This document shows, one piece after another, positions 31,156 through 31,400 of a DNA stretch of 33,548 nucleotides. Under the pieces are notes generated by a model. It was not told where the DNA came from. It made no database searches and saw only the letters and a list, made by a program, of their open reading frames with translations. The position numbers and the translations under genes were made by a program. Each line of letters begins with the position of its first letter. Position 1 is the first letter of the stretch. The DNA is from Acidobacteriota bacterium (GTDB lineage Bacteria; Acidobacteriota; Blastocatellia; RBC074): the NCBI GenBank assembly GCA_031401095.1, contig JANNRD010000455.1, forward strand, positions 1-33,548, written 5' to 3'.

Positions 31156-31190
31156 GGTCGCTGGAGTTAGCTCCTGCGGCCTTTTCGTTT
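31156..31190 (+). terminator. Rho-independent terminator, probably the native tRNA terminator
   Basis: GGTCGCTGGAG-TTAG-CTCCTGCGGCC forms an 11-bp stem with one mismatch and one G-U pair, followed by TTTTCGTTT. Confidence 0.65.
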
Positions 31191-31400
31191 GTGCGCCCGG
31201 CAGGGCGCACTCACTTGGGAGTGAAAGTCTCCTACGAACCCGACAGGGGGAATCGTTAGCCGGACGGCAAGGGTGTCCATTGCGAGGTGGAATCTGAAGG
31301 AAGCCGCAGGCAAAACGCTGGCTCGACAGACAGAAACCACATCCGAGGCGCTGACGCTGGATGAGAAGGCAAATATCTTCAAAGTGCAATACCTGTACGA
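31191..31400 (+). mobile_element. Truncated group II intron, 5' part of domain I, class C-like (no ORF, no domains V/VI seen)
   Basis: Starts GTGCGCCCGGCAGGGCGCAC right after the terminator T-tract. Contains GGGAGTGAAAGTCTCC, GTTAGCC, CAAGGGTGTCC and GGAATCTGAAGGAAGC in the same order as I recall for the Oceanobacillus iheyensis group IIC intron. The 3' limit is uncertain. Confidence 0.6.

Follow-up and report, generated by a model that had tools for sequence, protein, structure and literature searches.

A 5′ stub of a class C group II intron directly behind a tRNA terminator in an Acidobacteriota genome

Introduction

What occupies the DNA directly behind the terminator at the far end of a tRNA-linked cassette array, and how did it come to be there? 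We addressed this question for a stretch of 33,548 nt from an Acidobacteriota genome (hereafter the window). An initial annotation had placed a truncated class C (IIC) group II intron at 31156-31400, just after a native tRNA terminator. It had also proposed a covariance search with the Rfam group-II-D1D4 families, and a search of the genome for a full-length copy with its intron-encoded protein (IEP). We find that a bacterial class C group II intron is represented at window positions 31191-31402 (plus strand) by its first 212 nt, the front part of domain I. The reading we favour, at a probability of roughly 0.93, is that a class C intron inserted behind the terminator of a tRNA-Asn gene and then lost everything past its nucleotide 212 to deletion or replacement. 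Coordinates of the features discussed are given in Table 1.

Table 1. Features of the terminator flank, the intron stub and the DNA past the break (window coordinates).
Feature	Position	Strand	Basis
Distal (last) copy of the tRNA 3′ half	31100..31151	+	Repeat families D5/D6; aligns to the 3′ half of the intact tRNA-Asn(GTT) in G030
Native tRNA trailer terminator	31154..31190	+	Hairpin 31154-31183 plus tail; RNAfold; kept behind tRNA-Asn in G030
IBS1 (TTT), last three bases of the 5′ exon	31188..31190	+	Pairs with EBS1 AAA; covariation across 26 introns
5′ stub of class C group II intron	31191..31402	+	93.9% identity to C559:7359-7570; RF02001; colinear with Oceanobacillus IIC introns
EBS1 (AAA) in loop GGC-AAA-TATC of the retained domain I hairpin	31371..31373	+	Loop position as ATA in Oceanobacillus introns
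17-nt junction filler	31403..31419	+	Intron homology stops at 31402; G026:C7 homology starts at 31420
Promoter-like site of the toxin-antitoxin module: ATGAAA, 18 nt, TG-n-TATACT (extended -10)	31402..31431	+	Consensus scan; -10 region kept upstream of the G026 homologue
88-aa antitoxin-like ORF, vapB-like by position	31476..31742	+	ORF list; in G026:C7 an 88-aa homologue immediately precedes an intact PIN gene
PIN (VapC-type) toxin gene remnant, about 49 codons	31739..31885	+	83% DNA identity to G026:C7 over 31420-31885
hipA-like kinase toxin	31934-33163	-	Pfam HipA_C E=1.6e-45, Couple_hipA E=8.4e-13
HTH hipB-like antitoxin	33135-33413	-	Pfam HTH_31/HTH_3

Results and discussion

Extent and content of the intron stub

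The T-tract of the terminator (...GCGGCCTTTTCGTTT) stops at 31190, and the intron opens with GTGCGCCCGGCAGGGCGCAC at 31191. Further downstream in the stub, GGGAGTGAAAGTCTCC, GTTAGCC, CAAGGGTGTCC and GGAATCTGAAGGAAGC follow in that order. An Rfam scan of the whole window at gathering thresholds returned two matches only, a tRNA at 19939-20010 and RF02001 (group-II-D1D4-3) at 31276-31450, the latter with 69.6 bits against a gathering score of 32 (E=4e-12). The proposed covariance search was therefore positive. Together with the 93.9% identity that the stub shares over 212 nt with a complete intron elsewhere in its genome (contig C559), from which it differs at 13 positions (EBS1 included), this result bears out the claim that group II intron domain I sequence begins just after the T-tract.

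The identity to the C559 intron extends to 31402 (...CCTGTACGAAA) and is gone from 31403; the break falls inside domain I. The last 48 nt of the RF02001 alignment (31403-31450) are poorly paired, with many non-canonical pairs, and the alignment past 31402 is forced rather than a sign of true homology. With the same model, full-length and ORF-less copies of the family score 111-153 bits, as against the 69.6 bits of the stub. The element is a 5′ fragment, as first described. Its originally proposed end was close, the exact break being at 31402.

The stub corresponds to nt 1-212 of an element of 1,881 nt, or 11% of its length. Missing from it are the 3′ strands with which domain I closes, all of domains II-VI and the gene for the IEP. 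The 3′ junction of the insertion, where EBS3 would contact IBS3, is gone too. For domains V and VI (RF00029) there was no match in the window even at E<=10, and a permissive scan of 30500-33548 added nothing credible. Neither the ORF list nor Pfam gave a reverse transcriptase (RT) ORF downstream of the stub in the window, in agreement with the initial observation that RT and domain V/VI are absent. With the catalytic domain V and the branch-site domain VI missing, the element is a fragment rather than an intron. A consensus scan found no promoter belonging to the stub. The stub cannot fold into a ribozyme and encodes nothing; with a terminator in front of it, no own promoter and every catalytic part missing, it is an inert relic.

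Decay beyond the truncation was also considered, and an excess of it is not clearly seen. The stub carries changes at 6 of 138 family-invariant columns, compared with 2-9 in live copies, and one conserved helix pair is broken by a change from GTCC to GTGC at 31386. Since the level of decay is similar to that of live copies, the age of the stub and its status as a dead element rest on its missing parts and not on decay.

A complete sibling in the source genome and assignment to class C

The source genome (762 contigs, 94.85% complete, 6.4% contamination) was searched with 31191-31476, giving three further matches, on contigs C559, C611 and C512. At C559:7359-7570 nt 1-212 of the query match with 94% identity, and this match opens a complete intron of 1,881 nt (C559:7359-9239). 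The C559 intron matches RF02001 (152.8 bits), RF01998 (69.5 bits) and, at 9168-9239, RF00029 (D5/D6, 47.3 bits). Pfam assigns just two domains to its 474-aa ORF, RVT_1 (E=4e-42) and GIIM (E=2.3e-22). This is the full-length, IEP-bearing copy that the initial annotation had suggested looking for, and it fixes the truncation of the stub at 31402. The match at C611:5119-5234 is 100% identical to the C559 copy and runs into the contig end. Because it provides a second, identical 5′ junction, the family has inserted more than once in this genome. No other 3′ intron piece was found in the assembly; the only D5/D6 of the family is that inside the complete C559 copy. The third match, at C512:1151-1191 (L009 552-592), is 41 nt long and corresponds to intron nt 7-47 (95% identity). 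With a tRNA-Ala(CGC) gene and its terminator about 220 nt upstream, this internal piece is a second tRNA-adjacent relic.

The protein encoded by the C559 intron was compared with the PDB. The best match is the GsI-IIC RT (6ar1, E=3.9e-148), followed by the IIC maturase 7uim (1.5e-104) and the IIC RT fragments 5hhj and 5hhl. Matches to LtrA (IIA, E=2e-39) and to a chain of 6me0, a IIB maturase (6e-37), are much weaker. The sibling IEP resembles that of GsI-IIC also in lacking an endonuclease domain, as judged by Pfam for this sibling copy.

A second line of evidence comes from domain I. The 21-mer GTGTGCCCGGCATGGGTGCAG of the Oceanobacillus intron is present in 64 loci, mostly in Bacillales genomes. 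Three of these are Oceanobacillus records, including Oceanobacillus kapialis and Oceanobacillus sp. 1P07AA, and two of the Oceanobacillus loci were aligned to the window. The following blocks are colinear between the window and the Oceanobacillus introns: GTG(C/T)GCCCGGCA; GGTGA(A/G)AGTC; GTTAGC; GCAAGGGTGTCC; GGAATCTGAAGGAAGC; GGCAAA; GAGGC; TGGATGA; and CAAAGT(C/G)C. The equal block order upholds the initial statement that the motifs of the stub are arranged as in domain I of the Oceanobacillus IIC intron. The C559 sibling can be aligned to the Oceanobacillus introns through the end of domain I, and the window through nt 212. At the very 5′ end, the stub reads GTGCG where the Oceanobacillus copies read GTGTG.

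The insertion sites give a third line. All 11 of the 5′ junctions in the source genome and in G009, G011, G014, G020, G021, G024, G025, G026 and G029 lie directly behind a hairpin and T-tract. Such a position is the hallmark of IIC introns, which insert downstream of terminator motifs using IBS1, IBS3 and a stem-loop, with splice sites 3-11 nt past the stem (PMC1702495). The stub begins 7 nt past the hairpin stem, at the end of the T-tract, and thereby resembles O.i.I1 (Oceanobacillus iheyensis), B.h.I1 (Bacillus halodurans) and GsI-IIC (Geobacillus stearothermophilus), which likewise lie a few nucleotides behind an intrinsic terminator hairpin. On sequence evidence, the colinearity of domain I, terminator-side insertion, a 3-nt EBS1-IBS1 contact at the loop homologous to that of the Oceanobacillus introns and the sibling IEP assign the stub to bacterial class C, in line with the initial classification. 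The family is uncatalogued but typical, a fresh member of its class. The stub differs from known IIC introns in its length (212 of 1,881 nt), in lacking domain V and an IEP, and in its host, which is an acidobacterium rather than a member of the Bacillota.

The EBS1-IBS1 contact and independent insertion

In the alignments, the xxx triplet of the loop GGC-xxx-TATC changes in step with the final three bases of the 5′ exon. A count over 26 introns belonging to two phyla finds 85.9% of the cells paired, where shuffles give 52.1%. The real data reach a covariation score of 0.777 compared with 0.206 for shuffled data, none of 500 shuffles scores as high, and all six slid registers score <=0.19. This covariation is the EBS1-IBS1 contact. 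The EBS1/IBS1 pairs are AAA/TTT in the window, ACG/CGT in C559 and C611, AAA/TTT in G014 and G020, CAA/TTG in G026 and G029, and ATA/TAT in Oceanobacillus; other Bacillota have TAA/TTA, CAT/ATG, TTA/TAA, TGA/TCA and AGC/GTT. Two Acidobacteriota copies, in G021 and G011:C354, fit this register only with a 2-nt offset. The comparison offers a clean natural covariation proof of the 3-nt EBS1-IBS1 contact.

Another candidate for EBS1 was rejected. The segment ACGGAA at the break point can pair with the exon end TTCCGT of the C559 copy, and its choice would place the truncation within EBS1 itself. This segment is invariant while the exon ends vary; the true EBS1 loop lies 30 nt upstream of it.

The stub is an independent insertion at this site by reverse splicing, and not a piece brought in by recombination, because its EBS1 fits its own site and differs from that of its nearest sibling.

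The terminator is that of the displaced tRNA-Asn gene

The terminator hairpin at 31154-31183 has the form AAGGTCGC-T-GGAG-TTAG-CTCC-T-GCGGCCTT and is followed by the tail TTCGTTT at 31184-31190. RNAfold gives -24.7 kcal/mol for 60 nt that include it. A simple terminator scan called neither this hairpin nor any other terminator; an internal T-T mismatch in the stem explains why this one was missed. The call therefore rests on RNAfold and on conservation in G030, a distant relative of the same class and a different family. In G030 an intact tRNA-Asn(GTT) gene is followed by AAGGTCGCTGGA-TCAG-ATCCGGCGACCTTTTGTTTT. This trailer aligns with window positions 31154-31190, and the similarity stops exactly at the first base of the intron (31190/31191). 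The presence of this homologous hairpin and T-tract behind the intact tRNA-Asn of G030 shows that the terminator belongs to the tRNA, as the initial annotation had it.

The copies of the tRNA 3′ end in the cassette array are confirmed as repeats, and the last ~45 nt of the tRNA are copied within the repeat directly upstream of the hairpin. By these alignments, this last repeat and the hairpin are where the tRNA-Asn gene originally ended, pushed about 11 kb off by the cassette array. The stub shows where the tRNA-linked array truly ends on its outer side. Arrays of this kind are not unique to the source genome, because two genomes of the same family carry several tRNA-Asn 3′ halves a few kilobases apart on a contig (G007:C9:353031, 358579 and 360083; G001:C867:1102 and 2133). 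The tRNA-3′ repeat of the array also recurs, left arm included, at C460:603-746 (minus strand, L023) with 85% identity.

The position of the stub also invites comparison with IIC-attC introns, which target integron attC sites in the orientation opposite to cassette transcription (PMC3001079). Like those elements, the intron that left the stub was of class C and homed to a folded hairpin where a cassette array ends. Unlike them, it targets an ordinary Rho-independent terminator, in sense orientation and outside the att repeats of the array.

The junction at 31402/31403 and the DNA past the break

An abrupt end of homology raises the question of whether the junction is real. The intron could be full length in the genome, its 5′ part having been mis-joined, as a multi-copy repeat, to an unrelated contig with toxin-antitoxin (TA) genes. 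The genome is a fragmented MAG, with the contig number and contamination given above, and the intron repeat does break contigs: C611 ends inside the intron, and Logan contig L088 (run SRR20217196) starts inside the stub, at 31293. From that position onward, L088 is identical to the window across 31402/31403, so that 31293-31500 is reproduced in a per-run assembly from a different assembler; the gene for the 88-aa protein is present on two Logan per-run contigs. This argues that the junction is real and not an assembler-specific chimera, with the Logan contig perhaps drawn from the MAG's own read sets and hence not an independent sample. Repeat misjoins, moreover, arise in shared sequence, and nothing past 31402 matches any intron copy or other contig (31403-33519 has no matches elsewhere in the source genome). 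The 13 differences from other copies, including the stub's own EBS1, indicate a distinct locus rather than collapsed reads. We consider an assembly chimera very unlikely.

No intron 3′ remnant or 3′ exon was found directly past the break. The 17 nt of filler separate the end of the intron from sequence that matches contig C7 of G026, and neither microhomology nor an IS end or recombination site could be recognised in 31402-31419. The first gene past the stub begins 285 nt from the intron start, consistent with the initial statement that TA genes follow about 280 nt later. It encodes the 88-aa antitoxin-like protein, which matches no Pfam family, and is followed by the PIN remnant and the hipBA pair. 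G026:C7 carries the corresponding module in free-standing form with no intron around it: a TG-n-TATACT promoter region, the 88-aa antitoxin-like gene and an intact PIN gene (Pfam PIN E=2.3e-8 for its protein). The PIN remnant in the window has a 2-nt deletion, lacks its 3′ two thirds and is broken in frame between the ORFs starting at 31739 and 31803. The toxin is dead in the window while the antitoxin-like partner and its promoter are intact, leaving an orphan antitoxin.

Another arrangement that would account for the TA genes is a complete intron that carries them as cargo, for example in domain IV, with its 3′ ribozyme domains past the contig end. The contig does end 135 nt past hipB, leaving further sequence unseen, and the family includes ORF-less and rearranged derivatives. 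The homology nevertheless breaks at nt 212, in domain I rather than domain IV; between this point and the TA genes there is no further domain I sequence and nothing of domains II and III; the TA module has its free-standing homologue in G026 with the same promoter; and C460, which overlaps the contig end, has no intron match. A cargo-bearing intron is extremely unlikely.

Two minor features were noted towards the contig end. Upstream of the hipB-like gene, 33414-33480 contains two near-identical palindromes, GCCTAATATACTAGGC and GCCTAAGATATTAGGC, which are likely operator sites for the HTH antitoxin. The last 29 nt of the window (33520-33548) recur at C460:8366-8394 (L023) and, inverted, at 8536-8564. 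Because the repeat occurs there in direct and inverted form, C460 ends in a palindrome of about 200 nt that could be a genuine hairpin or could stem from the assembly.

How the stub arose

The favoured reading, insertion of a class C intron followed by loss of its 3′ part, implies the following sequence of events, whose order and deletion mechanism we infer. The RNP of an active IIC intron would have recognised the terminator hairpin and, through EBS1 (AAA), the 3-nt IBS1 (TTT). The intron would then have reverse-spliced into the DNA 7 nt past the stem, in the sense orientation of the tRNA, and been copied into DNA. A later deletion or replacement would have removed intron nt 213-1881 (1,669 nt), taking with it the remainder of domain I, all of domains II-VI and the RT/maturase gene. 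The loss is placed after insertion because abortive reverse transcription would remove the 5′ end and not the 3′ end. The stub would have become joined to the vapB-like/PIN module with its own promoter, the loss probably being tied to the arrival of this module, and the module itself would subsequently have been truncated beside hipBA. The DNA past the stub, with its vapB/PIN remnant and hipBA, is a patchwork of later arrivals and deletions.

That the stub is instead the 5′ half of a functional split intron, assembling in trans with a 3′ half encoded elsewhere, has next to no probability: its EBS1 is intact and matched to its own exon, and fragmented group II introns can work, domain I break sites included (PMC3410883, PMC6248898), but no separate 3′ piece is present in the 94.85%-complete assembly (the family's only D5/D6 being in the C559 copy), the stub lies behind a terminator without its own promoter, the upstream "exon" is a tRNA trailer and not a coding 5′ exon, and the conserved helix pair at 31386 is broken.

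The direct value of identifying the stub is one of annotation. Knowledge of group II introns is unchanged by it, and the stub is an ordinary genomic fossil of a well-known class of element. A comparison can be made with RmInt1, a IIB-like intron. An RmInt1-related remnant is known from Sinorhizobium (PMC4181065), and truncated bacterial group II introns are frequent, with truncated copies handled by the Zimmerly pipeline (PMC4028801). The stub is like such elements in being a non-functional piece at its original site with intact relatives in the genome. It is unlike the RmInt1-related remnants in intron class and in target type, its site being a tRNA terminator at the distal end of an array of cassettes.

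The intron family in related genomes

The family is present in about a quarter of 40 related genomes, in full-length, ORF-less (~700 nt) and stub forms. Four more 5′ stubs with a terminator junction were seen, at G009:C4:344488-344624, G024:C6:1526945-1527095, G025:C285:18124-18201 and G033:C49:16111-16170. A single candidate 3′-only relic lies at G025:C245:22128-22384. Among the 41 genomes searched, 5′ stubs outnumber 3′-only relics by 5 to 1, in a sample that is small and holds too few cases to mean much. The direction of this excess is the opposite of that expected from abortive reverse transcription. It is improbable, in our estimate, that 5′ stubs keeping their terminator junction are a preferred end-state of IIC introns rather than random debris. 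Were such a bias real, the simplest explanation would be that deletions run freely downstream but not upstream into a terminator that is needed. Alternatively, a stub may be selected for occupying and spoiling a favoured landing site, which would shield the terminator from re-invasion by live copies.

ORF-less derivatives of about 670-700 nt occur at L016 1021-1713 (minus strand; G011:C354), G011:C10:647-1318, G020:C9 (L017) and G020:C146:43738-44428. By Rfam, D1-D3 and D5/D6 are intact in these derivatives, and domain IV retains only the first ~100 nt of the IEP region. Full-length copies presumably mobilise them in trans.
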